This document shows, piece by piece, positions 1 through 37,695 of a DNA stretch of 64,000 nucleotides. Every line of letters starts with the position of its first letter. Positions within the stretch are counted from its first letter, which is position 1. Below the pieces are notes generated by a model. That model did not search any database. It was not told the origin of the DNA and saw nothing but the letters and a program-made list of their open reading frames with translations. Source of the stretch: a virus (Duplodnaviria > Caudoviricetes); IMG/VR virus record IMGVR_UViG_3300023174_000048, positions 128,001 to 192,000 of that record. One strand, 5' to 3'. The position numbers and the translations under genes were made by a program.

Positions 1-3000
1 GCTGACTGCATTCCATAGTCTTTTGATAATTGATTTTCAAGCTCTTTTCTTTGAAATAATTGTACGGTCGATGTTACTCTTGCTATTGCTTTTAGTGACG
101 ATACTGATGAAGCCGTCTCTAATTTGCTGCTTGATGGTTGACCAACATCTGAACTATTAACAAGAGCCCACTTGGTTGCTTTCGATGTTCGTGTATTAAA
201 AGCTCCGGGACTACTAGATATGGAAAAATCATCAATTACTTTTGGAGTTCTTGATGGTTCATTAATAAGAGGAGAAGCCTGACCAACTAATACTGTGCTG
301 GGACTCCAACTAAATAGTTTCGAAGACAGGTCTGAACTTCCAAATTGGGCATTATTTAATCTTTCTTGTAATATTAGATCTCTTTCTTTATTTTTTAAAT
401 TAGTAATTTCCTGATTAATTTGAGAGATCTGTTTTCCTCTTTTCAGATTTAACCTATTAGCTCTTCTTATTCTGTCATTTTCTTCTTTATTAAATAGTCC
501 TAATTTCCTCGTATATGTTCTGAATGAATAAGTTGTGGATATTCCCTGTTGTCCAACACTTGTTTGTATAGAGGTTATAATTGGACCATCAACAAAGTAT
601 GATGGAGTTTTTAAGTCTAATACTTTGTATATTGCAGTAACTGTGTTTTCTGTATTAGGGGAGAAAGACATAGTTGCTCCTGGAATATATGATAAATTCA
701 CAACAGAAGCTACGGAGTCTTTAACGTCTTTGTAACCATAACCAGATGGCGATATAATATGCAATCCTGTATTGGCTAATGCAAAATTACCACCTATATT
801 AAATAATGGAAGTCCTGGCATATCTAATTGAGCAGTTTCTATAACGCTCTGGTAGTTCACTTTTGTTTGTATCTCTTTAAAAGCAACAATATCTAACTGA
901 TGCATTCCTCCATAATTCCAAGGAACAAAATCATCATTAAATTCTATATTAACATTTGATATTAAATTGTTTAATGCTTTATCAACTTCTGCTTGCGTGG
1001 TTGCGCGACTTGAATATGTGCAAGTTAATGGAAACGTTGATGATTGAGTAACAAGCTGACCAGATGGGAAAATACCAGTACCCTCTAGTGCTGGATAATT
1101 AGTCCATGGTCCATAAACAAATTGATTTGATTTGATTGGAATACCGGCAAAAAAAGGATGAGCGGCTTTTGGTGCTAGCTCAACATTATTTGCAGTATGA
1201 TTAGATGATACGGTATATAGTCCAAGAAAATATGGATTATCACTATCGTCTAATACTATTGGACTAATATAGTTCAACATGTATCTTATCCAATCCATAT
1301 CCCAATCATCTTTTCTGGTAGTCTTTAAGTATATCATCAAGTCTTCAGCTGAAATGTTGGATATTACTGTTCTGTTAGGATCTTTAGCATTTTCTTCGCT
1401 AGATAAATTTAAATTAATTCCTGGAGAATCTATTAAGATTTTTGGATTTTCAAATCTAGTAGGATCTATATATATAAAACTTTCTTCAACTGATGTTGAT
1501 ACGTAAAGTTTTGATCTTGGCATTGATATGCCTTTTGTCATTGTCCCAGTAAGCTCTACTATCTCTGCCCCCCAAGCATCATACGATTTTACTATTGAAC
1601 CTAGAGTTAATGCTGTTGTCATACTTCCAGTAGGTACTATGCTGGTGCCAACAGTGGAGATATATTTTTGGTCAACTATAACATAGTCATTATTTGATAA
1701 AGAAGAAATATCTAATGATGGAAATATGTAGCTATCAGTACAACTTTTTGTTTTATATTCATTAAGAGTGAGCCAACTATCATAACTAAAATATGGATTT
1801 GCCTGTTCTTTTATAATGTCTTGAATTGGCGTAGTTTTATTAGCGGCCACACACTTTGCCTGTCTAATATAGTCATAATTATAATTATTGTTATAGCCCA
1901 ATAATGGCTGAATCTTACCAGTATCGTCCGTTAATGTCATCCATTGTGTTCCTCCAACAGCCATACTATCATCTATTATGTTTCCATATTCTTCCCAGGC
2001 CCCATCATTAGTTGGCGTATAATTATATCTTAAATTACCGTCTCCACTAAATATGTATCCGTATCCAACATTTGTGGGAAAAGCGAATCCGGTAACACTA
2101 TTTTCTCTATAGGTTCTTAATTGATCAGCAGACACCATGTATTTTTTGCCATAATACTTTGCAATGTCCGTAATAAATTTATGAATTATTTTTAAATCTT
2201 GCAAAGCTTTTTCTTGAATATATTGGCTACCATCATTTTTATCTGGATAAACGGCAGTTGGATATAATTCGTCTCCGGCAATATTAGGACCAAGTAATTT
2301 CCAATACCAGTCTGTTTCTTGAAAAGCAATTTTTTCAGCTTTATCAAGTTCCATACCCATATTATTCACTAGTTCATCTCGTGTTTTAATATAGTATGCT
2401 CTTCTTATTAACTCTATTAAGTCTGGCTTATATGTTTTTGCTAATGAATAAACAAGATAATTATCAAATCCTGCTATTGCTGCTCGTATCTCAGATTCTG
2501 TTAATACAAAAAATTCTACAGGGTCATAACTATTTAATATTCCAAGATTATTAAATGTTGTTGTTGGAGGATCCAGATTTGCTGTTTGAGGAAGAGCAAA
2601 GCCAGCTCCAGTTTCAAGATATGCTCGGCTAATTGGCACATTAAGCTTTGGTAATTCTGATATTCTTACTATTATAGATATTTGAGATGTCCAGGTGTCA
2701 TACCATACTGGACGTATTCTTCTAAAATCAGTATTTGCAGAATCATTGGCTCCTACCTTTAATCCAATTTTATTATCATAAACGAAACCAAAAAATGGAC
2801 ATATATTATCTAAATATAATGGAAACCATCTTCCCACAGAAGTGTCTGTTTGTGAGTATGCAATAGCATGACTATTTTTAAAGCACGGTTCATAGTTACC
2901 ATAATTAACATCAACACCGTCTAAGAGTTCATTTTTTGTATTCCATATATCATCTTTAGTACCAAAACCCTTTGAGGCAGCAGTTTGCATAGTATCTTCG

Positions 3001-4769
3001 TCATTAATTATGCTAACATATGCTGTCTCTAGTCTGCTTGATGTTCCAAGATAATCTGATATTTTTTTATTTCTTGAACTATTAAAGTTTGGAAATCTTA
3101 TTTTGCCGTGACCATATTGCTTAGTTGTAATAGTTGGAGCATCATTACCTATCGGCGCTCCATCAGCCAAAGAATAGTAGTTAACAAATTTTCTTGTTCT
3201 GGGATTATAAATGAAATTATTCTGAGTATATGCTAATCTATAACTTTTTACTTGGTATAATCTTTGTTGCTGTCCTCCAATAACCAAACATCTTGATGGA
3301 GTATCATTCTTTTCTTTTCCTATAGTATTTGATGATACTTGATAATTATTGCATTCTAATGATTTTATAGTATTTTCAATAAGATTTGTACTAGGTTGTT
3401 TTAGCCTTGATATTGCTTTAACTTTTATAACATGATAAAGTTTAGCACTATATACTCGTGGAATCATTTCTATGCTAAAGTCACAACCAGCTCTTTCTCC
3501 AATATCATTTAATAAATCGGTTATGCTAAGAAATGGTCCTGTGGTTCGTATATCATTTGGCAATCTTTTCTTTATTCTAGTATTATCTGTATATATAACG
3601 TCATGAAGATCTAATACAAATTGACATCTATTTGTTGAGGTAGTATCATTTGACATAGCATTTAAAGTTTGAGGATATACTACTCCAAATCTATTAAAAG
3701 CTGATGTTATTGGTTCATATAAATTACCATTATCCTCTCTTTGCATACATTTGGATATGATTCTTCCAAATGGAGAAAATGCTCTTTTTATAGCTTCGCT
3801 ACTTCTGTTAGGAGTACTTCCTTGACCTAAAACAGTATCTAATTTAAATGTGCTATCATGCGTTATTGAAGTTAACATCATTAAAGCGTCTAGAATAGAA
3901 TTTATACTAACTCCTCTATCGTCTGGTCGTGCTATTCCATAGTTTCCCTCACCGAAAGACTCTAAAAATCCATAAATGTTGAAAATATTAGGAATTGTTC
4001 CATGCTTTAAATCAGTATCACTATAATTAGCACCAAGCGATTTTAAATAATTCTTTGGACCACCATATATTGACGTAGATCCGGGGGCATCTGCTTTGCT
4101 AAAAATTGATCCAGCATATTTATCAACTATAATATAAGAAGAATTTAGAATAGCCTGTGGACCATTAATAATAACAGTATAATTTTTACCTCCGCTACCA
4201 ATATCTCGTGACCAAGATTGAACAAAGCCCCCAAATTGAAAATCCCCCATTTTAAAATAAACAGGAGTATCGATTATATCATACTTATATCCTGGATGAC
4301 TATCCTCAGCAACGTTTGAGTAAGTATTTTCTTCTTGTATTCTTGTTTTTCTTCCAAAAAATCCAGGATCAGGATCTTTCCAGTATTTTGATATTAATCC
4401 TTTGGTTTCTGATAATTCATAGTATACTTTTCCTGGAACTATTCTGTTTTCTATGGGAGTAGTCTCACTAGCTGCCGCCCCAGTATATTTATCAATAAAA
4501 CATCCTACTCCACTACAAAGAGTATAATGATCATCAGTATTGATAGTACCAGTGAACTGCGGATACATGCTTCCGTCATTTGGTTGGCCTGCTGTGAGAG
4601 AAGGAGACGGATCACAAGAGTAGACCAATTCATCTTCTACTAAATTAACTGTTAATTGTGATGGCTGTGTTCCCCAGCCGAAGTTGCTAGTGAAACTGGC
4701 TACACTAGCTCCTAAGAATAATGTTTGCGCAATTGGTTTATCTATATTTGAACATACTTTTGTTGGCAT
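1..4769 (-). CDS. Large virion structural protein, probable baseplate hub/Tal-like; truncated at the left window edge
   Basis: Not in the ORF track because it has no stop inside the window. Manual translation from ATG at 4769 (1 nt after the stop of the upstream gene) reads MPTKVCSNIDKPIAQTLFLGASVASFTSNFGWGTQPSQLTVNLVEDE... and stays open for 1589 codons to position 3. The function is inferred from its position after the TMP and fibre genes only. Confidence 0.85.
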   Translation of the reverse strand, partial: MPTKVCSNIDKPIAQTLFLGASVASFTSNFGWGTQPSQLTVNLVEDELVYSCDPSPSLTAGQPNDGSMYPQFTGTINTDDHYTLCSGVGCFIDKYTGAAASETTPIENRIVPGKVYYELSETKGLISKYWKDPDPGFFGRKTRIQEENTYSNVAEDSHPGYKYDIIDTPVYFKMGDFQFGGFVQSWSRDIGSGGKNYTVIINGPQAILNSSYIIVDKYAGSIFSKADAPGSTSIYGGPKNYLKSLGANYSDTDLKHGTIPNIFNIYGFLESFGEGNYGIARPDDRGVSINSILDALMMLTSITHDSTFKLDTVLGQGSTPNRSSEAIKRAFSPFGRIISKCMQREDNGNLYEPITSAFNRFGVVYPQTLNAMSNDTTSTNRCQFVLDLHDVIYTDNTRIKKRLPNDIRTTGPFLSITDLLNDIGERAGCDFSIEMIPRVYSAKLYHVIKVKAISRLKQPSTNLIENTIKSLECNNYQVSSNTIGKEKNDTPSRCLVIGGQQQRLYQVKSYRLAYTQNNFIYNPRTRKFVNYYSLADGAPIGNDAPTITTKQYGHGKIRFPNFNSSRNKKISDYLGTSSRLETAYVSIINDEDTMQTAASKGFGTKDDIWNTKNELLDGVDVNYGNYEPCFKNSHAIAYSQTDTSVGRWFPLYLDNICPFFGFVYDNKIGLKVGANDSANTDFRRIRPVWYDTWTSQISIIVRISELPKLNVPISRAYLETGAGFALPQTANLDPPTTTFNNLGILNSYDPVEFFVLTESEIRAAIAGFDNYLVYSLAKTYKPDLIELIRRAYYIKTRDELVNNMGMELDKAEKIAFQETDWYWKLLGPNIAGDELYPTAVYPDKNDGSQYIQEKALQDLKIIHKFITDIAKYYGKKYMVSADQLRTYRENSVTGFAFPTNVGYGYIFSGDGNLRYNYTPTNDGAWEEYGNIIDDSMAVGGTQWMTLTDDTGKIQPLLGYNNNYNYDYIRQAKCVAANKTTPIQDIIKEQANPYFSYDSWLTLNEYKTKSCTDSYIFPSLDISSLSNNDYVIVDQKYISTVGTSIVPTGSMTTALTLGSIVKSYDAWGAEIVELTGTMTKGISMPRSKLYVSTSVEESFIYIDPTRFENPKILIDSPGINLNLSSEENAKDPNRTVISNISAEDLMIYLKTTRKDDWDMDWIRYMLNYISPIVLDDSDNPYFLGLYTVSSNHTANNVELAPKAAHPFFAGIPIKSNQFVYGPWTNYPALEGTGIFPSGQLVTQSSTFPLTCTYSSRATTQAEVDKALNNLISNVNIEFNDDFVPWNYGGMHQLDIVAFKEIQTKVNYQSVIETAQLDMPGLPLFNIGGNFALANTGLHIISPSGYGYKDVKDSVASVVNLSYIPGATMSFSPNTENTVTAIYKVLDLKTPSYFVDGPIITSIQTSVGQQGISTTYSFRTYTRKLGLFNKEENDRIRRANRLNLKRGKQISQINQEITNLKNKERDLILQERLNNAQFGSSDLSSKLFSWSPSTVLVGQASPLINEPSRTPKVIDDFSISSSPGAFNTRTSKATKWALVNSSDVGQPSSSKLETASSVSSLKAIARVTSTVQLFQRKELENQLSKDYGMQS

Positions 4770-4770
4770 A

Positions 4771-6780
4771 TTAATAATCTAAATAATTTTTACTATTTGT
4801 GCATTGCTGATAAACCCATCCAATTGATTTTGAATATCTTCCATTAGTAGGATCCCATGATTGAGTATCATTGGTCACATAAACTTGTCCTTGGGCATTA
4901 TTATTATTCCTATTAAAATTAGCATTTCCGAATATGTATGAAGCCCTATCTCCAAATGGCTTTAATCCTTCAATAATTCCTGTTATAGTTTGATACACCG
5001 TTCCTCCCGTCCATAAAGGACAAGTGGTATTTTGCATAAAAAAGCCGCCCATACTAGATGGTGGAACCACTCCAACCTCGATGGTGACGCTTTTTCTTGT
5101 TGATGTTTTTGTTCCAAGATTTTGTAAAACTGGCCCTAATGATCGACCCAAAACGAAAGCTTCTCCAATAACATCTGTTGGCCCAGTTTCTTCAATACTA
5201 ACACTTTCATATAAAACACCACTTATTATTGTAAACTTATTATTAAACTCATAACTATATGATATGCTACCCTTTTTAGGATTATGTGTTTCAGAAGTTG
5301 ATATCGGTATAATATTTAATACAGAATTTCTAGAATATACTGGATTATTTGGGGGCTGTGGTGGATTAACTGCTCCTGGTATATATCCTTTTGTTCTGTC
5401 AGGACTACTCATCGGTATACAAGCTCTTCTGTACAAATATGGCTTAACTTCATTTATCCATCCACTAACAGCGTTAGCATACTTACTAGCCATTAAATTT
5501 TTAGTTACTGGTAATCCATTATCTGCTATTGCTGTATTAAATGATAAATTATCTAACAGTCCGGTAGATGAACTTAAATCAAATTTTAAAGGACTTCCAC
5601 TACCACTAACATATGGAAGTCCAGTAATTGCTGGATTACTAATACTTAATCCTATAATTTCTCCTTGAACTCTAACAGTATGAATATATTTATCGTCAGT
5701 GCTCATTTCTAATGAATAATCTTCAATAAAAGTTATTCCTGTTGGCATGGCTAACCAAGTATCAGTTATCTCATATCTGGCAGCATGAACATCAAAATTG
5801 GTGGATCTTAGATGATTATAAAAATATCCATCGGTTCCTCCTATTCCTCTCGTTAGCATTGGTGACCATAAAACGTTATCTGTTTTTTTATCAAAAATAG
5901 CAGATGATCGTTCCATCACCCATTTTTTAGCATTATTAAATGCTGATACTGCTAATGGTGGATATCTGTCAAAATCTATTTTATTTTGTTCATTTATTGG
6001 CAAAGTACTTTTACAAAATCCTGTTCCAGAAGGTATTCCTACGGCACTAATTGTTCTAGAAACTTTAAATTGAGGAATACTTAGATAATTAATATCAACT
6101 GGTGCTACTGCTGTTCCTCCAGTATTTGTTTGGTTCGATTTGGGTTCTCCAGCAGTATTTGTTGGAGCTGTTGGCTTTAATTGAGGATTATCATACTCTG
6201 TTTTTTGTATTACATTAATAGTTCCTTTACTGTAAATATAGTCTTCTAATGGTTCTATGCTCCAACTATCACTATAATCTTTAACATACCAACCACTGTA
6301 TGCCGGTTCCAAATATTCCAATACCGCCGTATAATCTGCGGTAAATATCCAATTATCATTACTCTTGTTAACATCAAAACTAACTAATCTAACACCACCA
6401 GCGCTAAATATGCTAGTTTCTACAGCGTTTGGTGCTGATTTGCATGTTATATCAAAACTTCCACAAGTATTTATTTTGAATATTTGATTTAATCCACTAA
6501 TTGCTGACATCATTGGACCGATGCCACTACCATTAGGTGATGCTTCTTTAGTAATAGTAACTTTACCAGTTAATGTTATTCTGTTGGTAAAAACCATAGG
6601 TTCTCCTGCTTCGTTTCTTTCAACAGAAGTGGAGAAATCAATGAATGGAGTTGGTCCAGCAACAGTGTGGATACCGCTACCGTTGAAATATACTCCAACA
6701 GCATTAGTAGGACCAAGAGCTTGTATAGTAGCAAAATCTTGTGTAGAATTTAGAGCTTCTAATGAATAAACCATAATCAA
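4771..6780 (-). CDS. Putative distal-tail/baseplate structural protein
   Basis: 669-aa ORF, co-oriented and abutting its neighbours, with AAGGA RBS upstream. Beta-rich segments (ITLTGKV, VSRTISAVG, VRVQGEIIG, KSVTIEV) are suggestive of tube/hub-like folds. Function is inferred from synteny. Confidence 0.6.
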   Translation of the reverse strand: MIMVYSLEALNSTQDFATIQALGPTNAVGVYFNGSGIHTVAGPTPFIDFSTSVERNEAGEPMVFTNRITLTGKVTITKEASPNGSGIGPMMSAISGLNQIFKINTCGSFDITCKSAPNAVETSIFSAGGVRLVSFDVNKSNDNWIFTADYTAVLEYLEPAYSGWYVKDYSDSWSIEPLEDYIYSKGTINVIQKTEYDNPQLKPTAPTNTAGEPKSNQTNTGGTAVAPVDINYLSIPQFKVSRTISAVGIPSGTGFCKSTLPINEQNKIDFDRYPPLAVSAFNNAKKWVMERSSAIFDKKTDNVLWSPMLTRGIGGTDGYFYNHLRSTNFDVHAARYEITDTWLAMPTGITFIEDYSLEMSTDDKYIHTVRVQGEIIGLSISNPAITGLPYVSGSGSPLKFDLSSSTGLLDNLSFNTAIADNGLPVTKNLMASKYANAVSGWINEVKPYLYRRACIPMSSPDRTKGYIPGAVNPPQPPNNPVYSRNSVLNIIPISTSETHNPKKGSISYSYEFNNKFTIISGVLYESVSIEETGPTDVIGEAFVLGRSLGPVLQNLGTKTSTRKSVTIEVGVVPPSSMGGFFMQNTTCPLWTGGTVYQTITGIIEGLKPFGDRASYIFGNANFNRNNNNAQGQVYVTNDTQSWDPTNGRYSKSIGWVYQQCTNSKNYLDY

Positions 6781-6798
6781 ATATCCTTAGTATCTTAT

Positions 6799-9700
6799 TT
6801 ATGCTATATCAAACCAATTGTGAGAGTATCCTGTTCTCTGACTAAATCCAGCCCCATTCGTTACCAGTACAACGCTACTATTAGCAATTGTGATAATAAT
6901 TCTATTTCTATCTCCTCCATCTGTATAAGTCCACACTTTAAATATGGGACTAAGTAATCCATAATTCGGAATTACTCGATTCCAAGAGACCTTATTGTTT
7001 ATTGATTCATATACGTTTCCATCAGTTGTTGTGATAATATATCTCCCACTACTGCTAGTAGTCACATATATTCCATATCCGTATATTATTTTGTCTACAT
7101 TAAACATACTATTTTGTGTAGATGATGTTATAACACTCCAATATATTCCGTTACTACTGGTCATCACATTCATTCCTGCTCCATATTGTCTATTTCCTAT
7201 TATTATAAACTCATTATTAAGATATTCTAATGACGAACAAGGCACAATTTGTCCACTAAATGATCTTACTGTCCATGTTAATCCATCCGGAGATGTTGCA
7301 CAGGAGCCTGAGTTGTCTGTAGCAGCAACAATGATGTTGGCCCCATAAGCAATTCCTTTCCAATTAGCATAAGCTGGTAATGTAGAATAAGTAACATCTT
7401 TAACATTCCCATTTTGAAATTTAATTATAGCAACTTGAGAACTAGTATTTGATGTTAATATAAAGTTGTTATTAATAGGATCATATGTAGAATTAATCCA
7501 CAAGGCGCTAGTACTCGGTATCTCATTTGATATATCATATGATTGCCAAGTCATACCATTATCAGTAGAATAATTAATTATATAACTAGTATATGCTGCA
7601 GCAATAAATACTCCATTACCATAACAGATTGTTGTCCAATTTTGATTATCTGGTAAGTCCTTTAAAACAAAAGAATTACCATAGGTTTGAGATACCATAG
7701 CCTTGTTATTATTGTATGCTACAGCAACAGCATTAGCTTGAGGTATGGCACTAGTTGCTGTTGGAGTTATGGTTACTGTTGGAGTGGTGGTTGTTGTTAT
7801 AGTAGGAGTGATTGTTGGAGTTTGTGTTGATGTTATACTCGGTGTTATTGAAACTGTTGGCGTTATTGTTCTGGTTGGAGTAGCCGTGGCAGTTACACTA
7901 ATAGTAGGAGTAACTGTTATTGTTGGGGTAGTTGTAACAGTGTTTGTTATGCTTGGGGTTATAGTAATTGTTGGACTAACACTAGCTGTTGGAGTCGCAG
8001 TATTCGTGGAAGTTATTGTTGGCGTTGTTGTTCTAGTTGGAGTAGCAGTAGCAGTTGTACTACTAGTAGGGGTAACTGTTATTGTTGGACTAATACTAAT
8101 TGTTGGAGTCGCAGTATTCGTGGAAGTTATTGTTGGGGTGCTTGTTGGCGTATTTGTTACGCTTGGCGTGATTGTATTAGTAGGAGTAATTGATGGAGTA
8201 TTTGTCGTCGTTATAGATGGTGTGGGACTATTAGTTGAAGTTACTGTATTGGTAGGAGTTACTGTTTTCGTTGGTGTTGTAGTTAACGTAACACTCGGCG
8301 TTATGGTATTGGTAGCGGTATTACTTGGTGTTATAGTGCTTGTGTTCGTTTTAGTAGGGGTTATACTATTAGTTGGCGTATTGCTAGGTGTTGTTGTGGG
8401 TGTTTTTGTTTGTGTTGGGGTAGGGGTCAGAGTAGTAGACTGAGCAACAAAAGAGAACTCCCTCTCTGCTCCGTCATAAATAACCTCACCATTATTATTC
8501 AGTCTACCGGCTGCTGCTTTAAATGTATAGGTTCTTCCATTCACCATCCTTAATCTAACATCATTATAGTTTAGTGTTATGCTACCATTAGCATTTATGC
8601 CATCATAATCATCACTAAAATTAAGACTATCACAAGTTAAATAATAGCCACCAAAAATTGAGTTAGAGGGTATTGTTGGGGAGACAAAATTAATTGTAAA
8701 AGATTGTGCCGACGTTGTAACTGATACAGTTGGTTGCCCTATTGGTGAACCAATATTTAAAACAGGAACAGTCAAGCTAGCAGATCCAATTGTTCCACAA
8801 TTTGTTAGATTATTATCACAAGCACTAACATAAAAAGTTACAGTACTACCAGCAGATGGAAAAGTATTAGCTTCATAATAGCTTAAAACACTGTTGTTTG
8901 CAGTAATACCCTCATCTCCAATTCCAGGAACACTAGACTCTACTCTATAATTAATTGGTCCTGTGCTTGTTGATAATATATTTAAGTTTTCTGGATAATT
9001 CCAGGAAATACTAAAAGATGGCTGATTATTAGTAATAATAGTTTGTACAACAATGTTCGTAGGAGCAGTTGCTGGAAGATTAGCTGTTGATAATGATATT
9101 GATTGATTTAATAATGAAATATTAGGCAATAATTTACCATCAAAAAACAATCCTTTATATAAAGCTTGTATATTATCGTTAATAAAAACACTATTTTGAT
9201 AAATTAATTGTCCAAGATTTACCGGACTGCACATTGATTTGCTTGGAGTAACTGTTGGAGTAGATGTTTTAGTCGGGGTTGGAGTCTTAGTATTTGTTGG
9301 TGTTTTTGTCGGGGTTCTAGAATTAGTTACAGAAATTGTTGGAGTTATAGTAGGAGTAGATGTGTTTGTTGATGACGGCGTTTTAGTTTTAGTTACACTC
9401 GGAGTTACAGTTCTAGTAGGAGTTACTGTTAATGTACTTGTTTTTGTTGGTGTTTGAGTAACAGAACCTGTAGGAGTTTTTGTTAAAGAAACTGATGGAG
9501 TAACAGTATTTGATGGAGTAAGTGTCTGGGTTGGAGTTGGAGTTGGAGTGATACATCCAAGATTCGTTGGTCCATTAGCCACACCAGTTACTGAGTCTGC
9601 AGTTACTGATGTTGGAACAGAATCGCTTTTTGTAGAATAAGTCCAATAACCAGCTCCAGTTCCACCCTTATTTGGATCATAATAAGCAGCTTTATACCAT

Positions 9701-10470
9701 TCGTTCTCTGTTGGTATCCAGTAAGAGTTACTATTATTCTTTGATGGCTTACTAGTTCCTTGTATTATAAAACCAGATAAAGAATACACTCCATCCTCTG
9801 TAGTTGAGTTGGATGGAACTCCTGTTGGTTTCCCATTACTTAGCCAGTTCACATATCTTGCAACACAAAACCAATTTATAAAATTAACTGGTTTATCTCC
9901 CATGTTTGCAAGAGAAGCATAAGAATATGATCCTGAAATTCCTGATCTAGAAATGCCTCCTCTTTGTGCAATATCTCCCATTTGAGAAACCCACAAAGAT
10001 AAGCTGTTAGAAGATATTGCTACTGCATTTAAAAATTCAACATATTCATTATTAGTTATTAGATATTTTTTAATTTGATAAGTATAGCTCACAGATCCAA
10101 GATTATTATTAGAAGAGTCAGAACTATTATTTGTGTTATTAATTAAAACATAGTTCTGTGAGTCTATGCTTGCCGAACTTTTTGCTATTCTAAAACCCAA
10201 ATCACTTCTTTTAGAGTCAAAGAAGTTAATATCAGCATAAGTCTTTTTTAAAGAATCTCCATTGCTAGCAAATGATCCACCTCTAAAAATTGGATAGCTA
10301 TTACTTATAGTATCTAAAAGCTCATTAACATTTCCGCTTTGATCATATGTTCCGTAGTAACTAGGTTGTCCATTTGATCCTACAGAAGTAATATTACCAG
10401 TTAAAGCATTCCATGATGCTGAATTATTATAATTAGCGGTATTACAATTATTTAATAAATAACTCATCAC
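6799..10470 (-). CDS. Fibre/adhesin: N-terminal FGE-sulfatase (C-type-lectin-fold) domain, two Thr/Pro-rich linkers, Ig/FN3-like middle, C-terminal BNR-like beta-propeller
   Basis: Motifs YGTYDQSGNVNE, RGGSF...GFRIA, KPVNFINW, YWIPTENEWYKAAYYDP; long T-P-T-x-T runs; repeats STDNGMTW, TSPDGLTW, TSSNGIYW. Confidence 0.8.
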   Translation of the reverse strand: MMSYLLNNCNTANYNNSASWNALTGNITSVGSNGQPSYYGTYDQSGNVNELLDTISNSYPIFRGGSFASNGDSLKKTYADINFFDSKRSDLGFRIAKSSASIDSQNYVLINNTNNSSDSSNNNLGSVSYTYQIKKYLITNNEYVEFLNAVAISSNSLSLWVSQMGDIAQRGGISRSGISGSYSYASLANMGDKPVNFINWFCVARYVNWLSNGKPTGVPSNSTTEDGVYSLSGFIIQGTSKPSKNNSNSYWIPTENEWYKAAYYDPNKGGTGAGYWTYSTKSDSVPTSVTADSVTGVANGPTNLGCITPTPTPTQTLTPSNTVTPSVSLTKTPTGSVTQTPTKTSTLTVTPTRTVTPSVTKTKTPSSTNTSTPTITPTISVTNSRTPTKTPTNTKTPTPTKTSTPTVTPSKSMCSPVNLGQLIYQNSVFINDNIQALYKGLFFDGKLLPNISLLNQSISLSTANLPATAPTNIVVQTIITNNQPSFSISWNYPENLNILSTSTGPINYRVESSVPGIGDEGITANNSVLSYYEANTFPSAGSTVTFYVSACDNNLTNCGTIGSASLTVPVLNIGSPIGQPTVSVTTSAQSFTINFVSPTIPSNSIFGGYYLTCDSLNFSDDYDGINANGSITLNYNDVRLRMVNGRTYTFKAAAGRLNNNGEVIYDGAEREFSFVAQSTTLTPTPTQTKTPTTTPSNTPTNSITPTKTNTSTITPSNTATNTITPSVTLTTTPTKTVTPTNTVTSTNSPTPSITTTNTPSITPTNTITPSVTNTPTSTPTITSTNTATPTISISPTITVTPTSSTTATATPTRTTTPTITSTNTATPTASVSPTITITPSITNTVTTTPTITVTPTISVTATATPTRTITPTVSITPSITSTQTPTITPTITTTTTPTVTITPTATSAIPQANAVAVAYNNNKAMVSQTYGNSFVLKDLPDNQNWTTICYGNGVFIAAAYTSYIINYSTDNGMTWQSYDISNEIPSTSALWINSTYDPINNNFILTSNTSSQVAIIKFQNGNVKDVTYSTLPAYANWKGIAYGANIIVAATDNSGSCATSPDGLTWTVRSFSGQIVPCSSLEYLNNEFIIIGNRQYGAGMNVMTSSNGIYWSVITSSTQNSMFNVDKIIYGYGIYVTTSSSGRYIITTTDGNVYESINNKVSWNRVIPNYGLLSPIFKVWTYTDGGDRNRIIITIANSSVVLVTNGAGFSQRTGYSHNWFDIA
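7745..8443 (-). repeat. Thr/Pro-rich T-P-T-x-T-x low-complexity coding repeat
   Basis: About 230 aa of TPT(I/V)T(S/T) hexapeptide-like repeats in the 1223-aa protein; similar shorter tracts at about 9230-9560 and 44750-45000. Confidence 0.9.
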
Positions 10471-10487
10471 GTTTCCTTATAGGGCTA

Positions 10488-11987
10488 TCAACAACTTGTA
10501 GTTCCGCCACATTGAACCGTTAATGTGTCAGTAGCAGTTTCTCCTGATGTTAAATTAGTAGTAATAACCCTTAATGCTCTTGTGTTGCTGTCAGATAAAT
10601 CTGAAGTTAAGCGAGTACCAAAGGTTATATTTCCATTAATGTCAGTAACGGCTATGCCGCTAATTGGTAAAGTACTGATTTTCCCATCACTGATTGTTGG
10701 TATAAATTCATATCTGTATGCTTGAGCCGGTGAGCCAACAATAGTAGCCGTTAGGTCTCTTGTTCCGGTGCAACAAGGATAACTCAAACTTAGTAACGGA
10801 GCATTAGTAAATCCTACAGAGTATTTATCGAGACAATTAGAACAAATAATAGTAGACTCTGAGCTAGATACTTTAGAATTATTACAGTCTTGAGTTAGCT
10901 CCATCTTTAATTTGCATATTTTTTCTAATCTAGCAACACCATAAGATAATAATGTATTTATTGAATATGGCTCAACCCCAATAGTGTTTTGTGGACATAA
11001 CCCTGTTGATGCACAAAACGACAGTCTAACAGATACTGTTTGGTTATCGCTAGTTGGTACAATAACTCCACTATTTGGATATAAAACAATTGGCCAATTA
11101 GCATCAGAAGTAAAAAATCTATAACTATACTTTTCTCCAGCCTTAAGATTTGAAAGAGTAGCAGATACTGTTGTTTTGCTAGTTGTGGAACTGGTCAGAG
11201 TAACAGAGTTTGGTAGTGAAACTGTTGGTTTTGTTAAACAATTATCACAAACTATTGAAAAAGAAGTTTGAGTTTTTGTTTGCAAAGCACTAATATCGAT
11301 AGGAGTAATAGTTAGCTTAATTTTACCATAAAGTTCATCTCCAGCATAACACTGGTTAGACTGTTGATACTTTAGAATATCGCTTTGTGATTTCTGACAA
11401 TTATCTGATGAATTGCAAAAAGAAGCTAAGGAGCTAAGAATATATGTTTCTTTTGTTGATTGTATTGTGCCAGATGATGGCAGAATACTAATGGGCCAAT
11501 TGCCATCAATTCCTTCAAACTTATATGTATATTCCTGATTTGGAATTAATCCACTAATAGTTATTGGTATATTGTTAGCATTTTTAGTACTAGCATTAAG
11601 AGTAACATCAGGAGCTGATATATCTATATTGGGTAAACAGGTGTCACATTCTACTAAACATGAACGACTATAAACAACGTTATTATTATTAGAGTTGGTG
11701 ATAACTAGGTCTAAAACAGTATATAATGTTGTATTATCAACAGACAATGTTGTTTGTTTAAGATTAGTTGTTGGAATGTTATAAAACACACTAGGGTCAC
11801 TTGGTGAGCATGAAGCGGCACTCGGACAAAAGTATGCATAAGAATTTAGTTGTGGAGGATAAAAAACTCCTGAACGAGGCATAATTTTTACTGGCCAATT
11901 CCCGCCTCTATTATTAAAAATAAAGTTATATTGTTCTTTATCATCTAATCCGTCCACAGATACATCTATAAGCTTGATTGTTGACAT
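10488..11987 (-). CDS. Cys-rich virion protein with three ~130-aa NWP repeats
   Basis: 499-aa ORF; repeats GGNWPVKIMPRSG, DGNWPISILPSSG, DANWPIVLYPNSG, each followed by FC-x4/5-C and C-x-x-C motifs. Confidence 0.75.
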   Translation of the reverse strand: MSTIKLIDVSVDGLDDKEQYNFIFNNRGGNWPVKIMPRSGVFYPPQLNSYAYFCPSAASCSPSDPSVFYNIPTTNLKQTTLSVDNTTLYTVLDLVITNSNNNNVVYSRSCLVECDTCLPNIDISAPDVTLNASTKNANNIPITISGLIPNQEYTYKFEGIDGNWPISILPSSGTIQSTKETYILSSLASFCNSSDNCQKSQSDILKYQQSNQCYAGDELYGKIKLTITPIDISALQTKTQTSFSIVCDNCLTKPTVSLPNSVTLTSSTTSKTTVSATLSNLKAGEKYSYRFFTSDANWPIVLYPNSGVIVPTSDNQTVSVRLSFCASTGLCPQNTIGVEPYSINTLLSYGVARLEKICKLKMELTQDCNNSKVSSSESTIICSNCLDKYSVGFTNAPLLSLSYPCCTGTRDLTATIVGSPAQAYRYEFIPTISDGKISTLPISGIAVTDINGNITFGTRLTSDLSDSNTRALRVITTNLTSGETATDTLTVQCGGTTSC

Positions 11988-12004
11988 TACATTATACCTT
12001 TTAT

Positions 12005-13222
12005 TTATGAGTCTTGTATATTTTTTATATCTACAGATGAATTTATCGAGCTTGGTGCCGAATAATTCTTACATGTTAACTTTAAAACATTACTATAGTG
12101 AATAATAGTAGGATAATCTTGATCAGTTAAAGATGCTCTTAATGTTATCGAAGGTCTATACCACGACTGTTTAGTTACGTTATTATTTTGAGAAACGTAT
12201 GTCAAAACGTTATTAGTATTACTAGGATACTGTTCTGTTGACGGGCAAAATACACCGTCTATTTTTATTGAATCTGTTGCTGAAGTAATTTTTATTAGTC
12301 CTGTTGGATGAGAAACATAATAAGGCCATGTTGCAGATAGTGACTCTATTGAATATCTATATGTTTTATTTTTACTAAAATTTGTCAAATTAACAGATAG
12401 TGTTTCTTTTTGGTTCTTGACTCTGTCATCCTCATTAGTAATACTAGAAGATATTATAGCTTGTGGCAAACAATCTATACACTTTATAGTAAACTCATTA
12501 CTTAATACAGAGTCTCCATCATATGATTGTGGCGTTAATTCAAGTTGTAATATTATGTGCTTATCATTTAAGTTAGAAACTAAACATGAAACAGGAATAT
12601 TATATTCTATATTTGATACGTTACAGTTCTGGGTTGTTGGAGATAGAGTCAGTATTGATTGTATTGATCCAGAAGTTGAGGTGGATCTTAATGTTCCACT
12701 AATAGGGGTTATATTGGCTGGCCAATTACTATTAATGGTATTGAATTTATATGAATATGTTTCATTAATCTGTAAATTATCGGCATTAATATTTAAAAAA
12801 CTACTATTGCCTGTCCTTGTATTTAAATCGACTGAATCAATACTAACTCTTGGTAATATATCGGGATCAGCAAAATTGGTTACTGTTCCACCTAATACTG
12901 GTATGCTAAGTGGCAGAAATGATGTGTCTCTAACAATAAAATAATATGATAGTTTAGAGTCTAGATATTCTAATGTTGAATCGGGGTGTGGAATATAAGT
13001 ATATTTTGTATTTCCTAATTCGTCAGTGGTTTCTGTTAGTTTTGTCCAAAATTTTAATATTTTACCATTAATGTCCTGACTACTATAAATACTCCCGATT
13101 GACTGAATAAATCTATCATATATAATCTTGTCTGTTGTAGACAAATTTTGTGGTTTAGTTTTTAATGGTAGTTGTGCTTTGCCATTATAGTGTGTAATAA
13201 AAAATTGGCTATTTATAATCAT
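12005..13222 (-). CDS. Virion protein with two NWP-type repeats (paralogue of 10488..11987)
   Basis: 405-aa ORF; SNWPANITPISGTL and ATWPYYVSHPTGLI, plus IKCIDCLP. Confidence 0.75.
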   Translation of the reverse strand: MIINSQFFITHYNGKAQLPLKTKPQNLSTTDKIIYDRFIQSIGSIYSSQDINGKILKFWTKLTETTDELGNTKYTYIPHPDSTLEYLDSKLSYYFIVRDTSFLPLSIPVLGGTVTNFADPDILPRVSIDSVDLNTRTGNSSFLNINADNLQINETYSYKFNTINSNWPANITPISGTLRSTSTSGSIQSILTLSPTTQNCNVSNIEYNIPVSCLVSNLNDKHIILQLELTPQSYDGDSVLSNEFTIKCIDCLPQAIISSSITNEDDRVKNQKETLSVNLTNFSKNKTYRYSIESLSATWPYYVSHPTGLIKITSATDSIKIDGVFCPSTEQYPSNTNNVLTYVSQNNNVTKQSWYRPSITLRASLTDQDYPTIIHYSNVLKLTCKNYSAPSSINSSVDIKNIQDS

Positions 13223-13251
13223 ATTTAATCCATTTATTTATGGTTTGTACT

Positions 13252-13264
13252 AATAATTACACCA
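13252..13264 (-). promoter_or_regulatory. GTGTA-led intergenic motif, copy 5
   Basis: TGGTGTAATTATT upstream of 12005..13222. Confidence 0.45.
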
Positions 13265-13265
13265 T

Positions 13266-14363
13266 TTAGATATTTGACATACATATAGAATCATTTAAAA
13301 CTCTGCCACCAAGCTTAATTATAGATACTTCTGGAATAGGGGCTGGTAAACTATCTTTTGCTAAAAGGGTTGTATTTTTAATAGGCAAAAAAATTATTAA
13401 ATTTGATAAACCAGTTGATACTTTTGGAATAAACTGTGCAATAATTTGATCTTTAACTTGATAGGTCCAATTATTATTCTGATCTAATACAGTATAAAGG
13501 GGAGACTCTATTGTTGTTGATTCTGTACTTGTGAAACATCCGAAAATTGTTGTTAAAGAATAAATTCCAGAATATTCAATAGAATTACCAATTTGTTGGT
13601 TTAATTCAAATACTGTGTCAGATACTATACTTTTAACCGTTATTATTGCGCTGCCTGATCCGCTATTCGCAAATACTATAATTATATTAGCATTTAATGT
13701 TACAGACTTACTGATAACTACTTTTGAGGCGGCTTCATCTATAGAAACAATTGACCCTAATAGTGTTCCGTCTTGCTTATATGCCAACATGCCAACAGAT
13801 AAGCTTGAGATATTAGCAAGAGTAATACTTGTTGATGATGATACTGCAGAAGATACTATTTTGGATACTCTGTTGAGTGATTGATCCAATCCTGGTCCTT
13901 GGATCGTTGATCCAACCATAACGGATGATGTTGATTCATTATTTCCAGTTATTTGTATTAAACTACCACCATTAGGTCCAAAATTAGAAGAACTAGAACT
14001 CAATAATTTACCTGTAACAGAAACCACAGATTCTGGATAACAAACTATTAATATATAATCAGTATATATGATAGTATTATTTGTGTCTTTTATTACTAAT
14101 CTTAATAGTGTTTTTGTTTGTGTTTTACGTAAAGATTTTATCTTAATAAATACTGTAGGATTAAATAAATTAGATCCAAAAATAGAATAAGAACCATTTG
14201 ATGGCTCAAAACTTATAATATTAGCCGGGCTCTGTGGAAGACTAACGGGAGTATCAAAATACAGTATATATTGATTCTTCTGTTTTAGATTAGATGGAGT
14301 TGGAAAGGATATAACTATCCCTTTTTCAGCCTCTTCTAAAGAATAATTAACAGTATTAATCAT
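13266..14363 (-). CDS. Hypothetical baseplate/fibre-associated protein
   Basis: 365-aa Ser/Ile-rich, beta-rich ORF within the operon; no family recognised. Confidence 0.65.
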   Translation of the reverse strand: MINTVNYSLEEAEKGIVISFPTPSNLKQKNQYILYFDTPVSLPQSPANIISFEPSNGSYSIFGSNLFNPTVFIKIKSLRKTQTKTLLRLVIKDTNNTIIYTDYILIVCYPESVVSVTGKLLSSSSSNFGPNGGSLIQITGNNESTSSVMVGSTIQGPGLDQSLNRVSKIVSSAVSSSTSITLANISSLSVGMLAYKQDGTLLGSIVSIDEAASKVVISKSVTLNANIIIVFANSGSGSAIITVKSIVSDTVFELNQQIGNSIEYSGIYSLTTIFGCFTSTESTTIESPLYTVLDQNNNWTYQVKDQIIAQFIPKVSTGLSNLIIFLPIKNTTLLAKDSLPAPIPEVSIIKLGGRVLNDSICMSNI

Positions 14364-14376
14364 ATATTATATCCAG

Positions 14377-14934
14377 TTAAGATTGTGTAGCACATTTAAT
14401 AGTAATAATTTTTTCAATTAATTTTTTACTATCTGTAATTGAAGATACTATGAATTTAAATATACTAATATTTTGTTGATTATTTGAAATAGATAGATTT
14501 ACTGGAACAACACCTTTTCTTACAGATATTGTTTCATTAGTTGTTGTCCCTGGTTTTGGGATTGTGTATTCAGAATACTTTACAGACTGTACGTTAATAT
14601 CTGTTGGTAATGAATTTGTTGTCAATTCAACAAGCTCAAAAGAATACTGATAAGGATCTAATTTTAATTTACTAACTTCAAATTCTAATATTCCACCTAA
14701 GCAACAGAAATTTTCTACTATATCATTTCCTACTATTGTATTCTCATAATTTAGTACAATTTCTGGAGTAGGATCAAAGCAAATTTTTTGAGCTATCCAT
14801 TCTACTATGGATCCATCGGTAAGTTTTGTATACAGTCTTCCAGTAACGCTATTTATTACTAATTCTCCAACTAAAACCTGATCGACACTTGGAAAGCCAT
14901 TACCGCTTTCGTCTCTTTTTAATAGTAGTTTCAT
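14377..14934 (-). CDS. Small protein with fibre-type N-terminal anchoring motif
   Basis: The ORF track starts it at 14943, but ATG at 14934 overlaps the upstream TGA (ATGA coupling). N-terminus KLLLKR...P...VGELVINSVTGRLYTK resembles the N-termini of the fibres at 51549..55841 and 55858..60723. Confidence 0.7.
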   Translation of the reverse strand: MKLLLKRDESGNGFPSVDQVLVGELVINSVTGRLYTKLTDGSIVEWIAQKICFDPTPEIVLNYENTIVGNDIVENFCCLGGILEFEVSKLKLDPYQYSFELVELTTNSLPTDINVQSVKYSEYTIPKPGTTTNETISVRKGVVPVNLSISNNQQNISIFKFIVSSITDSKKLIEKIITIKCATQS

Positions 14935-17420
14935 ACTGAACATACTCCTGTAAATAATACTGTTCCGAAATCCCAGTTGCTTAATTGATCTGTTTGTTGT
15001 TGAGAAACAGCATCAGGATCATCTTCTGGTAGAACATTACCAGAACTATAAATATAAGAAAAAGCGCTTTGACCAAAAGAGTTCCATGCTGATATTCTAT
15101 AATAATAATTTATTTTAGATGTTGTGCCAGTAATTGTTTCTGTAGTATTAGTTATTAATTGATCAAGAGCGGAAACTGCAGGATCATAACTTGGATAATA
15201 TTGCCAAGTTAATCCATTATCAGATGATTCTTCTATTGAAAAACCCAATAAATTGGAAGATCCATTTTGTCCAGCGACCCAAGATAGTCTTATATCTGAA
15301 TATTCACTATTATCAAATGTCCTTACTTGGGTTAGGCCATATGGGGCTTTTGGAACAGATAATCCTGGAATTATTGTTGAAGAAGCATTGGAATATTCTC
15401 CTATTCCGATAGCATTTTGAGCAGCAACTCTAAATAGGTATGAGGTCAATGGTGACAACCCAATTATAGTAGCTTTATTAGAATATGCATTTGCTCTATT
15501 TATATAAAAATTATTATCATTGGGAATATCTGTCCATGTTGATCCGCCATTAGTAGAAAATTGTATTAGATAATTTATGATCTGACTATTGCCATCACTT
15601 TCTGGAATAGTCCAAGATATAGAGGATTCAGCATTTCCTGACCCATTATTATCAGGGTCTAGTATCACGCCAGATGGTTTACCAGGTATTGTTGGATTAG
15701 TCTTTGGTACTCTTGATATTATTTTACCATTTTTATCAATAGTTAATAAAGCATTAGTTATATATTTATTACTATTATTTGATAATGGAGATGGTCTTAA
15801 ATAAATATCTTCAGCAATAATATTAGGACTATAAGTTGTTCTGTTAACTGTTAAATCAGCATAGTCATAAATATATCCTGTTATCGTCACCTCTCCGATT
15901 TTATAGGTTCCAGTTGGTAGTGAACTTATAACATATGCGCCGCTGGTATTAATAGAAACTTTTGCTCTAGTATCATAACTCCATCCTGAAGGATTTACTT
16001 TTTCTCTGTCTAAATACTTTGTGAAGTATACTCCAGAAGCTGGAGATCCGCTAGCTGCGTTTGGTATATTAGCATCTATTTTAAATGCAGGAACTAAACC
16101 AGAGGGAATATTATTTGTATTTAGTCCAAAAATATTTTCATCATAGTTTCCATATCTTGTTTTTCTTTGTCCATAAACAAGGAAGTCTATATTTTCACCA
16201 AGCATATTAAATGCCGTATAAGTATCTGGTCTTATACTGATACTATTAAGTGTACTTGGTTTAAATTTTAATTGACTAGCTGGTAGTTCTTCTTGTATAC
16301 AACTATATTGGTTCTTTGCAGTTCTTCCCAACTGCATGTCCATATATGCTCCCTTAGTAACAGAGAAAGCATAACCATTGCCTGAGTATGAAGTACCACC
16401 GGACCAAGGTTTTGGAGTACAAATTTTAATAGCTAATCCTTGCACTGTTTGATCAGGCTCTCCATCAGGATCGACAAAATCAACATCAAAATATAAATCA
16501 CTTAATGGAGTAATTAAATCAATAGAGTCTTGTTCAGCACCGTATCTAACTTCTGCTGCAAATTTTACAAATGTAATTTCTCTAGTATCATTACGCACCA
16601 ATTCAATAGTATCAAAACCCACCCCAAATTCTGCTTCTAATATATCTTGCGTTAATGCTGTTGAGCTTATGCTAGCATCTGCCCATTTGGGTTTATTTAC
16701 ATAAAATATAATTCTACCATCCTCAATCTTGATGGGTCTCTTTGAGAACCTATTCCACAAAACACCGTCCGCATTAAGATAGACTGCGGGAGACCATTGT
16801 GCGGGTTGGTCTTTTCCCATGTGTGTTAAAATATTCCCCTTATATCCTTCAAAATTTGGAGCTATTTGTACTCCTTCTGCTAATTTTGTTAAGGCATTGA
16901 TTGTAACGGTTGCTGGGATTTCTGTACCATCAATAGTTGCAGATGGAACGTACTCTATCTCTGGGAATGCTTTTATTTCATGAGTATTAGGATTATCAAA
17001 ATTTCCAGAACTAATATAAAGAGGTCCATATGGCTGGTTTGGCATTGTTAGAGCATTTAATCCAGTATTAAAAATTAATTTATTTCCAGGAATTGCTGCT
17101 AAGTCATTGTCTCCGGATCTGTATATCAACGATCCATCAGATCCAGGATAAGAAGGTACTATATTACCACTAGAGTCTATTTTACTCATGTTTTGATATA
17201 ACAGGTTTTTAGATCTTAACCCACTAGTATCAACATACCCTTGAGATACTAACTGAATACCACTTGCTCCAACAAGCCACATATTTCCACTAGCAGCCAA
17301 TTGGATGTTCTTATCTCCCAGGATATTATAATATTTTCCATCTATTTTTTTATTTCCGGTGTTAATACTAACTCCGGGCCAGCCGCTAGGTCCAATAATT
17401 GTATACCAGGGATTACTCAT
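14931..17420 (-). CDS. Tail/fibre protein with two C-terminal fibronectin type III domains
   Basis: Two FN3 signatures at about 15040-15690: PGKP...ISW..P...Y.IQ.S..GG.TW...GLSP.TSY.FRVAAQN..G and PKAP...LSW......F.IE.S.D.G.TW...YYYRISAWN.FG. Confidence 0.8.
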   Translation of the reverse strand: MSNPWYTIIGPSGWPGVSINTGNKKIDGKYYNILGDKNIQLAASGNMWLVGASGIQLVSQGYVDTSGLRSKNLLYQNMSKIDSSGNIVPSYPGSDGSLIYRSGDNDLAAIPGNKLIFNTGLNALTMPNQPYGPLYISSGNFDNPNTHEIKAFPEIEYVPSATIDGTEIPATVTINALTKLAEGVQIAPNFEGYKGNILTHMGKDQPAQWSPAVYLNADGVLWNRFSKRPIKIEDGRIIFYVNKPKWADASISSTALTQDILEAEFGVGFDTIELVRNDTREITFVKFAAEVRYGAEQDSIDLITPLSDLYFDVDFVDPDGEPDQTVQGLAIKICTPKPWSGGTSYSGNGYAFSVTKGAYMDMQLGRTAKNQYSCIQEELPASQLKFKPSTLNSISIRPDTYTAFNMLGENIDFLVYGQRKTRYGNYDENIFGLNTNNIPSGLVPAFKIDANIPNAASGSPASGVYFTKYLDREKVNPSGWSYDTRAKVSINTSGAYVISSLPTGTYKIGEVTITGYIYDYADLTVNRTTYSPNIIAEDIYLRPSPLSNNSNKYITNALLTIDKNGKIISRVPKTNPTIPGKPSGVILDPDNNGSGNAESSISWTIPESDGNSQIINYLIQFSTNGGSTWTDIPNDNNFYINRANAYSNKATIIGLSPLTSYLFRVAAQNAIGIGEYSNASSTIIPGLSVPKAPYGLTQVRTFDNSEYSDIRLSWVAGQNGSSNLLGFSIEESSDNGLTWQYYPSYDPAVSALDQLITNTTETITGTTSKINYYYRISAWNSFGQSAFSYIYSSGNVLPEDDPDAVSQQQTDQLSNWDFGTVLFTGVCSV

Positions 17421-17436
17421 GATTAATTTCCTCTAT

Positions 17437-20400: not shown

Positions 20401-20892
20401 TAATGGGTTTGATGATTCTATTAGTTTTAATTCAATAATAATATTGTTTGACTGGTCTAATGATGGAAGATTAATACTGATAGATTTTGAAGAGCAGTCT
20501 ACAAGATACAAGGCGCTTATAGGATCTAAAGATAAATCTTTATCAATAACGATTGTGTTGTTTAGTCCTTTGTCAAAAGAACTTTGATTAGCAAATACAT
20601 AAAAATCATTACCAGAAGATGGAAAATCTACTGTATTGTTATTATTAGACGATGAAATAGTCTCAATTCTTTTAACAACAATATTACCAATATTATCAAA
20701 TACTATTTCTCCAACACCAGTTTCAAATAGGCGACTATTTAAGTTTCTGGCTATGTAAGGAATTAAATATCCTACATGATTGGTATTAAGAATATTATAT
20801 GTTTTTATAGCAGATACTGGCTTAATACCGTCATTTTCTATAACGAAATTAAATCCAATATTATCAAATACTCTTATTAGTTTGTTTGACAT
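17437..20892 (-). CDS. Fibre/baseplate protein with C-terminal FGE-sulfatase (C-type-lectin-fold) domain
   Basis: 1151-aa ORF directly downstream of the TMP. YGTYDQNGNAAEW, GFRIAS, YRIGKYEVTNTQYCAFLNAV, KPVVFVSY, YWLPNLNEWHKAAYY at about 17900-18720. Confidence 0.8.
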   Translation of the reverse strand: MSNKLIRVFDNIGFNFVIENDGIKPVSAIKTYNILNTNHVGYLIPYIARNLNSRLFETGVGEIVFDNIGNIVVKRIETISSSNNNNTVDFPSSGNDFYVFANQSSFDKGLNNTIVIDKDLSLDPISALYLVDCSSKSISINLPSLDQSNNIIIELKLIESSNPLFINDKDGSLVCTLDSFNNYARLASTGKDWVVLNNKTPERMGVQSLNNDSDTFSIMSADINNAEMYWDSGSQRVFIGANSASSADTIIPTSGTYPFVVNNNSNGSDFIVYGSGSLNKNLFFSYDGRVGINIPSGSRPSTVFHIVNTVCQEGLRLENRTSCYPANITLYHKPSTDITSGSVVSQINLSAKNSTGNQTNYAQIESRAVNTTVYGEKGSLDITVVSGVTGIKTIQTTVDSTYVGYSGNRLQINNNGNLLLTNGSSQITVSPQSSITFSSASLYATGTSYLTNISSQNIDASNITISNLGSSGLLMVSGGKIINSPLSIDSAGSLRIPVPANKLLSTTANGAITGIYTLDDYFLTERDIVWTKYSPRTATACLRQITFADSVPSDEFAPGDQIVISYNGSNLYRRVISLELNGNAIVGLLVDESIVQNTTSNVNIYSITKGGYLTMTKSVDDGIISNSSSNTLSIRPLVDTTFNAGQKDINFSVYGLGDDPALFIKANTGRILIPSGIYSGFATGRSDMFSTIINITGVGLSNQYSSANYAYDNSRNIFSGLLSSVGTNGLPSYYGTYDQNGNAAEWIEKQDAIESRDSIEFIAGGAYSTANDSIIGSNVLKSIESLIRASGYNYVGFRIASLQGITDQTYISSTNGLNMSFVGVNNPKNIEDLNPIYIKNPAGSPTVYSQQVINNLGVVNNIYRIGKYEVTNTQYCAFLNAVAKINDRELYDIRMSSNAQGGITRISNAGYEYSTKSNMGDKPVVFVSYLSAIKFINWLHNGASITLSESDIDYNLSVGAYTIYSIGSNSYNVVKSSYRKYWLPNLNEWHKAAYYRPVNSNDFTGTSTVSIKRSEPEIIATGIDITGSAAKLYANLSVSGWLYVDHIVVGDGTIRSAKSFTGLTDPVVVDTPTSQGTTTVSPSINLLTQYNNPYASVFGSVASCISAGCSFNAKPLRLDEDTISLCSDNTLSYNEIPWWCDTNNNGPGWFN

Positions 20893-20895
20893 ATA

Positions 20896-37668: not shown

Positions 37669-37695
37669 CTAAAAAGAAGAATTATGTTATAAAAA

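Follow-up and report, generated by a model that had tools for sequence, protein, structure and literature searches.

A gene on the minus strand of an uncultured freshwater phage (6799..10470) encodes a protein of 1223 amino acids (aa) whose N-terminal domain is predicted to have the FGE-sulfatase / C-type-lectin fold (FGE, formylglycine-generating enzyme) with its two halves in reversed order. The gene lies in a 64,000-nucleotide stretch, hereafter the window, that covers positions 128,001 to 192,000 of IMG/VR record IMGVR_UViG_3300023174_000048. The reading proposed in this study, to which a probability of roughly 0.8 is assigned, is that the domain is a circularly permuted FGE-fold unit that forms one predicted domain, acts as a non-enzymatic binding head on a tail-module protein and originated from a tandem array. 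In this arrangement the segment that is canonically last (GNV.E, RGGS, variable loop, GFR) stands first in the chain, a loop of about 9 residues joins this former end segment to the former start segment, and the new chain ends correspond to an internal loop of canonical relatives. The fold family is known; the form with swapped halves is the new part.

Reversed order of the two halves

The gene and the parts of the permuted domain are as follows.

6799..10470 (-): whole gene, 1223 aa (P0001); from the list of open reading frames (ORFs) and the translation.
9571..10443 (-): circularly permuted FGE-sulfatase / C-type-lectin-fold domain, residues about 10-300; from the AlphaFold2 single-domain prediction and the split, reversed Pfam matches.
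10180..10413 (-): residues 20-97, canonically the C-terminal third (GNV.E, RGGS, GFR); from PF03781 positions 158-255, the C-ends of TvpA, pFGE, CarF and FGE, and superposition on EgtB-IV.
10153..10179 (-): residues 98-106, short new junction from the canonical C-end to the canonical N-start; from C-to-N gap statistics and the junctions of tandem doubles.
9589..10152 (-): residues 107-294, canonically the N-terminal two thirds (KY.ITN.EY.EFLNAV, KPVNFINW, ENEWYKAAYY); from PF03781 positions 36-136 and superposition on human FGE and CarF.

A first-pass annotation made from the sequence had located these motifs in the same minus-strand ORF, as the ORF list and translation bear out, and had proposed a circular permutation that should appear as two split PF03781 matches in reversed order. 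The whole 1223-aa protein matched PF03781 in two stretches (E-value (E) 6.8e-12; 46 bits, gathering cut-off 23.3), and residues 1-323 scored 51.5 bits against the same cut-off. When residues 1-100 were scanned alone, residues 20-97 fell on profile positions 158-255 of 255 (E 4.3e-5, 23.7 bits); residues 101-295 scanned alone matched positions 36-127 (E 1.5e-8), and in the whole-protein scan residues 130-280 covered positions 36-136. The later part of the profile thus comes first, and no collinear match to PF03781 was obtained. Seven canonical bacterial relatives used as a control were all collinear, reaching up to positions 34-254 of 255.

Other profiles gave the same order. Among NCBIfam models, residues 57-98 matched the final residues of GldK (365-406 of 408) and SenA (344-381 of 382), while residues 129-174 matched the start of the EgtB FGE domain. 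A single-sequence phmmer search of PDB sequences returned nothing at E <= 1, and a profile built from 49 phage units was required to reach solved structures; positions 3-91 of that profile aligned with the C-ends of TvpA (189-292 of 294), pFGE, CarF and human FGE, and positions 108-253 with the N-terminal parts of the same four proteins. Hidden Markov models (HMMs) of each half-domain, built from the 49 units, matched the 1223-aa ORF at E 1.2e-32 and 1.5e-72, scores that are partly self-counting since this ORF is itself one of the 49, and matched just one further ORF in the window (17437..20892). As judged from these profile scores, the split, reversed PF03781 match is far beyond chance. The likely start codon of the gene is an ATG at 10467 with AAGGA, resembling a ribosome-binding site, 6 nt before it, and the gene upstream has its stop at 10488; therefore, no N-terminal half lies ahead of the permuted domain.

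Predicted fold

The 300-residue unit is predicted to form one compact domain. The AlphaFold2 model of residues 1-310 has a mean predicted local distance difference test score (pLDDT) of 88.3 and a predicted template modelling score (pTM) of 0.89, with disorder at the two ends only. The first-pass annotation had expected the fold to close around its new termini, and the model does so as a single confident domain with no sign that the halves fold independently. Foldseek searches with this model returned FGE-fold chains only, the best being TvpA (Treponema denticola variable protein 1, PDB 2y3c), each over about 100 columns at E of about 1e-2, as expected when a permuted domain is given to an aligner that follows sequence order. 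With VIA-align, model residues 100-297 were superposed on human FGE 87-279, CarF 5-192 and TvpA 52-241 (Z 4.4-6.4), and residues 7-99 on the C-terminal part of EgtB-IV (334-448; root-mean-square deviation (rmsd) 1.6-2.2 A, 30% identity). Across these superpositions on solved FGE folds, which concern each half singly, Z was 4.4-6.4 and rmsd 1.6-4.2 A.

The position of the cut can be read from canonical relatives in Planctomycetota and Verrucomicrobiota, in which the equivalent of the phage C-tail (...EWYKAAY...YW.Y.T.S...PT...) is contiguous with the equivalent of the phage N-start (...NY...W....GN.T.VGS...YGT.DQ.GN). This places the cut within an internal loop, near Pfam positions 138-158, with nothing lost.

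Distribution of permuted and canonical units

A search with residues 1-310 matched 538 proteins. The two halves were mapped on 240 collected proteins, of which 91 had the C-then-N order, 129 were canonical and 20 were mixed. Permuted proteins had a median C-to-N gap of 8 aa (interquartile range 7-10, n=168) and a median N-to-C gap of 115 aa, compared to medians of 49 aa (C-to-N) and 22 aa (N-to-C) in canonical proteins. In many IMG/VR loci the unit begins no more than 8 aa from the ORF start or ends no more than 11 aa from the ORF stop. Among the scorable IMG/VR loci, 70/75 had only tight C-N pairs, 4/75 had only canonical pairs and 1/75 had both. The same profile, run over one genome per species for 185,579 prokaryotic species, identified 576 relatives, and in the best 80 of these the bacterial loci were 80/80 canonical and 0/80 permuted; restriction of the permuted form to phages accordingly means, for this subtype, that it does not occur among the 80 best bacterial loci. 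With E <= 1e-3 as the limit, an exhaustive profile search yielded 60,166 representatives, and with E <= 1e-30 it yielded 4,014; both counts pool permuted and canonical relatives. On sequence evidence, the permuted unit is a family that is common in uncultured phages.

Databases of described phages returned little. Searching 50,697 GenBank phage records with two different permuted units (tblastn) gave no match, nor did 18 kb of the window searched by megablast against GenBank phage records. In BFVD, Foldseek found no match over the full length; its best hit, over 92 columns (E 0.08), was to an FGE-like protein with canonical order from Microcystis phage LMM01. The permuted form was not found described in the literature searched on circular permutation in FGE, C-type lectin or SUMF1 proteins or on FGE-sulfatase domains on phage tails, and the string 'permut' does not occur in a survey of diversity-generating retroelements (DGRs; PMC5758913).

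The best bacterial relatives came mostly from metagenome-assembled genomes (MAGs) of Planctomycetota and Verrucomicrobiota, and some carry PEP-CTERM. The resemblance to PEP-CTERM proteins of Planctomycetota noted in the first-pass annotation therefore holds, but the hint at a host that was drawn from it was rejected as too weak, given that the window has a G+C content of 30-41% and that FGE-like genes are plentiful in those phyla.

Origin of the permutation

The unit would most likely have originated from canonical domains in a tightly joined tandem array that lost its first N-part and its last C-part. In bacterial tandem doubles (N-C-N-C), the C-to-N junctions are 6-12 aa long, with GFR.A followed by about 9 residues and then FV.VGD..N..D, and they equal the junction of the permuted units in both length and pattern; such an array trimmed at both ends would leave a permuted unit. 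Canonical doubles or triples with tight junctions, which are plausible precursors, were observed in bacterial MAG loci L084, L097, L100, L103, L110, L115, L135, L145 and L153.

The permutation was probably a single event, after which the unit would have spread among uncultured phages. A FastTree phylogeny of half-wise alignments rejoined in canonical order had 7 changes between permuted and canonical labels, compared to a mean of 52 when labels were shuffled, and an IQ-TREE phylogeny of 97 units had 2. A tree with 44/44 permuted units on one side of a branch had a log-likelihood 14.5 above that of the free search and was not rejected by the approximately unbiased test (p 0.66), from which two bacterial units that are 5'-truncated canonical doubles (L081, L093) were left out. 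Three metagenomic relatives (P0088, P0061, P0029) contain permuted and canonical units in one protein; in P0088 the permuted unit is N-terminal and the canonical unit C-terminal.

Several points weigh against the reading proposed here. The trees are poorly resolved, and 2 of the 7 FastTree label changes come from 5'-truncated canonical doubles that were labelled permuted. The topology test is compatible with a single origin rather than proof of one, and the proteins with both arrangements mean that the rearrangement may recur. The closure into a single domain is taken from the pTM and pLDDT of the model, and phage fibres are mostly oligomeric, so that the C-part of one chain could complete the N-part of its neighbour in a domain-swapped dimeric or trimeric fibre. 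We consider such a swap unlikely: the monomer model closes confidently, and the junction is tightly kept at 7-10 aa, which fits a hairpin between adjacent strands of one chain.

Another explanation is that the order is merely apparent and that the unit is a slice of a canonical tandem array, its two parts belonging to different folding units or being orphan remnants. The close canonical relatives are indeed tandem doubles with tight C-to-N junctions, across which the permuted query aligns straight. However, the 1223-aa protein holds a single C-part and a single N-part without any further FGE piece, the borders of many relatives' ORFs coincide with the unit borders, successive units are separated by hundreds of residues, and AlphaFold2 packs both parts into one domain (pTM 0.89), all of which makes this explanation very unlikely.

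A probable binding head rather than an enzyme

The probable function of the permuted unit can be approached through its most variable segment.

10201..10320 (-): residues 51-90, hypervariable loops that lie between the anchors GNV.E, RGG and GFR and are presumed to form the ligand-binding surface; from column entropy and the alignment with the FGE Cys336/Cys341 loop and TvpA.

In the 49-unit alignment, residues 51-90 have the highest column entropy (2.7-3.4 bits) and the most insertions, while the flanking anchors are invariant. In alignments its counterparts are the Cys336/Cys341 loop in FGE and the C-terminal segment in TvpA. In human FGE the catalytic, copper-binding pair Cys336/Cys341 is located between GGS and GFR. 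The RGGS-to-GFR stretch of the 1223-aa protein (residues 66-90) contains no Cys, and with the catalytic pair missing the domain would therefore be a binding module rather than an enzyme; we infer that it is a non-enzymatic binding head. Of the two roles suggested in the first-pass annotation, a putative receptor-binding role is plausible, while the metal-binding one found no support here. The partner is likely to be a glycan or protein of the host surface, contacted through the hypervariable loops at residues 51-90, and ordinary divergence together with module exchange would account for the specificity of the head.

An active enzyme of the FGE, EgtB or OvoA kind, carried as an auxiliary metabolic gene, would agree with the PF03781 score above the gathering cut-off and with the name that JGI gives such proteins ('formylglycine-generating enzyme required for sulfatase activity'). 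This is nevertheless highly improbable, as the catalytic Cys pair is absent and nothing in the family varies more than the corresponding loop. In addition, the DinB-type iron domain of EgtB/OvoA was not found in Pfam and NCBIfam scans, in which the EgtB matches span just 44 residues at 21.5-28 bits compared to a cut-off of 360, and the domain belongs to a Pro/Thr-stalked, putatively structural protein within a tail module.

Proteins of the TvpA type are non-catalytic binders with a DGR-diversified loop between GGS and GFR (PMC5758913), and residues 51-90, the most variable segment of the phage unit, are the counterpart of the segment that DGRs diversify in TvpA. That correspondence would suit a variable protein of a DGR with its variable region shifted to the 5' part of the gene, but this too has very little probability, given that no template-repeat/variable-repeat pair was found within the 64-kb window, no reverse transcriptase (RVT_1) was found in the nearest 95%-complete relative genome, and only 2/17 differences from a 95%-identical allele fall in residues 66-90, with no clustering in the loop.

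Architecture of the rest of the protein

As a binding head, the permuted domain would occupy the free N-terminus, borne on a Pro/Thr-rich stalk some 100 residues long, with putative Fn3-like domains and a predicted C-terminal beta-propeller further along the same protein.

9256..9552 (-): Pro/Thr-rich stalk 1, residues about 307-405 (about 100); from the translation and repeat families D1/D2.
8356..9255 (-): middle region, residues 406-705; from phmmer against relatives, phrog_15511 (unknown function) and an Atlas fn3 match of 0.87.
9046..9255 (-): module of about 70 residues, residues 406-475, directly after stalk 1; from phmmer against relatives.
7666..8355 (-): Pro/Thr-rich stalk 2, residues about 706-935 (about 230); from the translation and repeat families D1/D2.
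6802..7665 (-): C-terminal beta-propeller with Asp-box-like repeats, residues about 936-1223; from AlphaFold2, Foldseek and weak Sortilin-Vps10/BNR matches.

Every relative with an N-terminal permuted head keeps the module of about 70 residues in this position, while the parts downstream of it differ; speculatively, the module is a candidate virion-attachment or oligomerisation piece. The Atlas match (0.87) offers a weak lead that the remainder of the middle region may be Fn3/Ig-like. One relative (P0024, 693 aa) ends right after the middle region. The AlphaFold2 model of the C-terminal propeller is all-beta (pLDDT 75.9, pTM 0.80), and Foldseek matched it to many propellers, best to Ycf48 (TM-score 0.64). 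A propeller paralogous to that at 6802..7665 is present in a 437-aa protein with a Pro/Thr linker elsewhere in the window (43875..45188 (-); phmmer E 2.9e-20, DNA repeats D9/D10). On the plus strand, the 'VGV'-rich ORFs 7745..8443 and 9239..9457 are the antisense of Pro/Thr-stalk codons and not genes.

Genomic setting and a second permuted copy

Every large ORF of the window lies on the minus strand. A 5565-aa ORF upstream (20896..37593) contains PF10145, a phage minor tail / tape-measure N-domain (E 3.8e-25), and the 1223-aa gene is the seventh gene after it, which therefore places it in the tail module. A neighbouring ORF matches minor-tail PHROGs through an fn3 domain. Architecture and tail-module position together suggest that the 1223-aa protein is a fibre. 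PHROGs gave no function for its head or for most neighbouring genes. The closest record, an IMG/VR phage contig of 131 kb whose completeness is estimated at 95%, encodes a 99%-identical protein.

The second ORF matched by the half-domain HMMs (17437..20892 (-)) encodes a protein of 1151 aa and immediately follows the tape-measure gene.

17887..18774 (-): another permuted FGE-fold domain, at residues 707-1002 of this protein; from the half HMMs, Pfam and DNA repeat D8.

Its C-part (707-802) precedes its N-part (852-1002) with a gap of about 50 aa, above the usual length, and PF03781 positions 155-253 precede positions 35-122. The two copies have a 95-nt DNA repeat (D8) in common, with 73% identity.

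Next to the 1223-aa gene, the adjacent proteins of 499 aa (10488..11987 (-)) and 405 aa (12005..13222 (-)) contain three and two copies, respectively, of a Cys-rich module with the motif NWP....P.SG.I; Pfam and PHROG searches of both gave sub-threshold fn3-like matches and nothing else. Over the whole window (1..64000), PHROGs and Pfam leave nearly all structural genes of this phage unrecognised, with a match of just E 6e-4 for the major head protein, and the lineage is very poorly represented in current phage family libraries.

Comparison with known systems

Among characterised proteins, TvpA is similar in that both halves align with the phage profile (E 5.7e-10) and that it is a non-catalytic binder of the FGE subclass (PMC5758913). 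In contrast to the phage domain, TvpA is collinear with a C-terminal variable region that is DGR-diversified; the phage domain is rotated, with its loop close to the N-terminus, and neither the window nor the nearest relative genome yielded a DGR. The canonical FGE-like proteins of Planctomycetota and Verrucomicrobiota, which are single-domain (some with PEP-CTERM) or tandem doubles, have 32-48% identity to the phage domain and the motifs KY.VTN.EY.EFLNAV, NEWYKAAY and GNVTTVGS in common with it, and the tandem doubles also have its short junction from GFR to FV.VGD. They differ in having the N-part first (the 80 best loci) with collinear Pfam matches, and in being cellular proteins, secreted or anchored, compared to a phage tail module.

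Human FGE (SUMF1, PDB 1y1e) and pFGE (SUMF2, PDB 1y4j) contain the same fold halves. FGE is a copper oxidase with Cys336/Cys341, both of which the phage domain lacks, while pFGE is non-catalytic like the phage domain yet collinear. PorK/GldK of type IX secretion (PDB 9mzu) and CarF (PDB 5aoh) were matched by structure and profile and are likewise non-enzymatic structural or binding proteins of the FGE fold, but they are collinear and belong to unrelated cellular contexts.

Natural circular permutations that arose through duplication and truncation include swaposin/saposin and some DNA methyltransferases. The route proposed here is the same, with plausible tandem intermediates extant. Those cases concern other folds, and here the permuted and canonical forms are split between phage and cellular sequences in the searched samples.

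Implications

A broader interpretation is offered tentatively, as a possibility that we rate well below the main conclusion: the permuted unit may have a single origin, be specific to phages and represent one of the major types of head with which large, uncultured freshwater phages recognise their hosts. By moving the chain ends off the canonical N/C strand pair, the permutation may have made the unit mountable at either end of a protein on a Pro/Thr stalk, possibly glycosylated, and allowed it to be shuffled as a cassette.

The name 'formylglycine-generating enzyme' suggests a metabolic gene, whereas the evidence favours a non-catalytic structural binding head. A profile in the permuted order scores this unit, which is among its 49 sequences, far above Pfam, and could flag candidate host-recognition proteins in scarcely annotated uncultured phages. 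The domain would also add a large natural circular permutation whose plausible tandem intermediates are still extant, and any differences in specificity between phage lineages would most obviously be sought in its hypervariable loop (residues 51-90).

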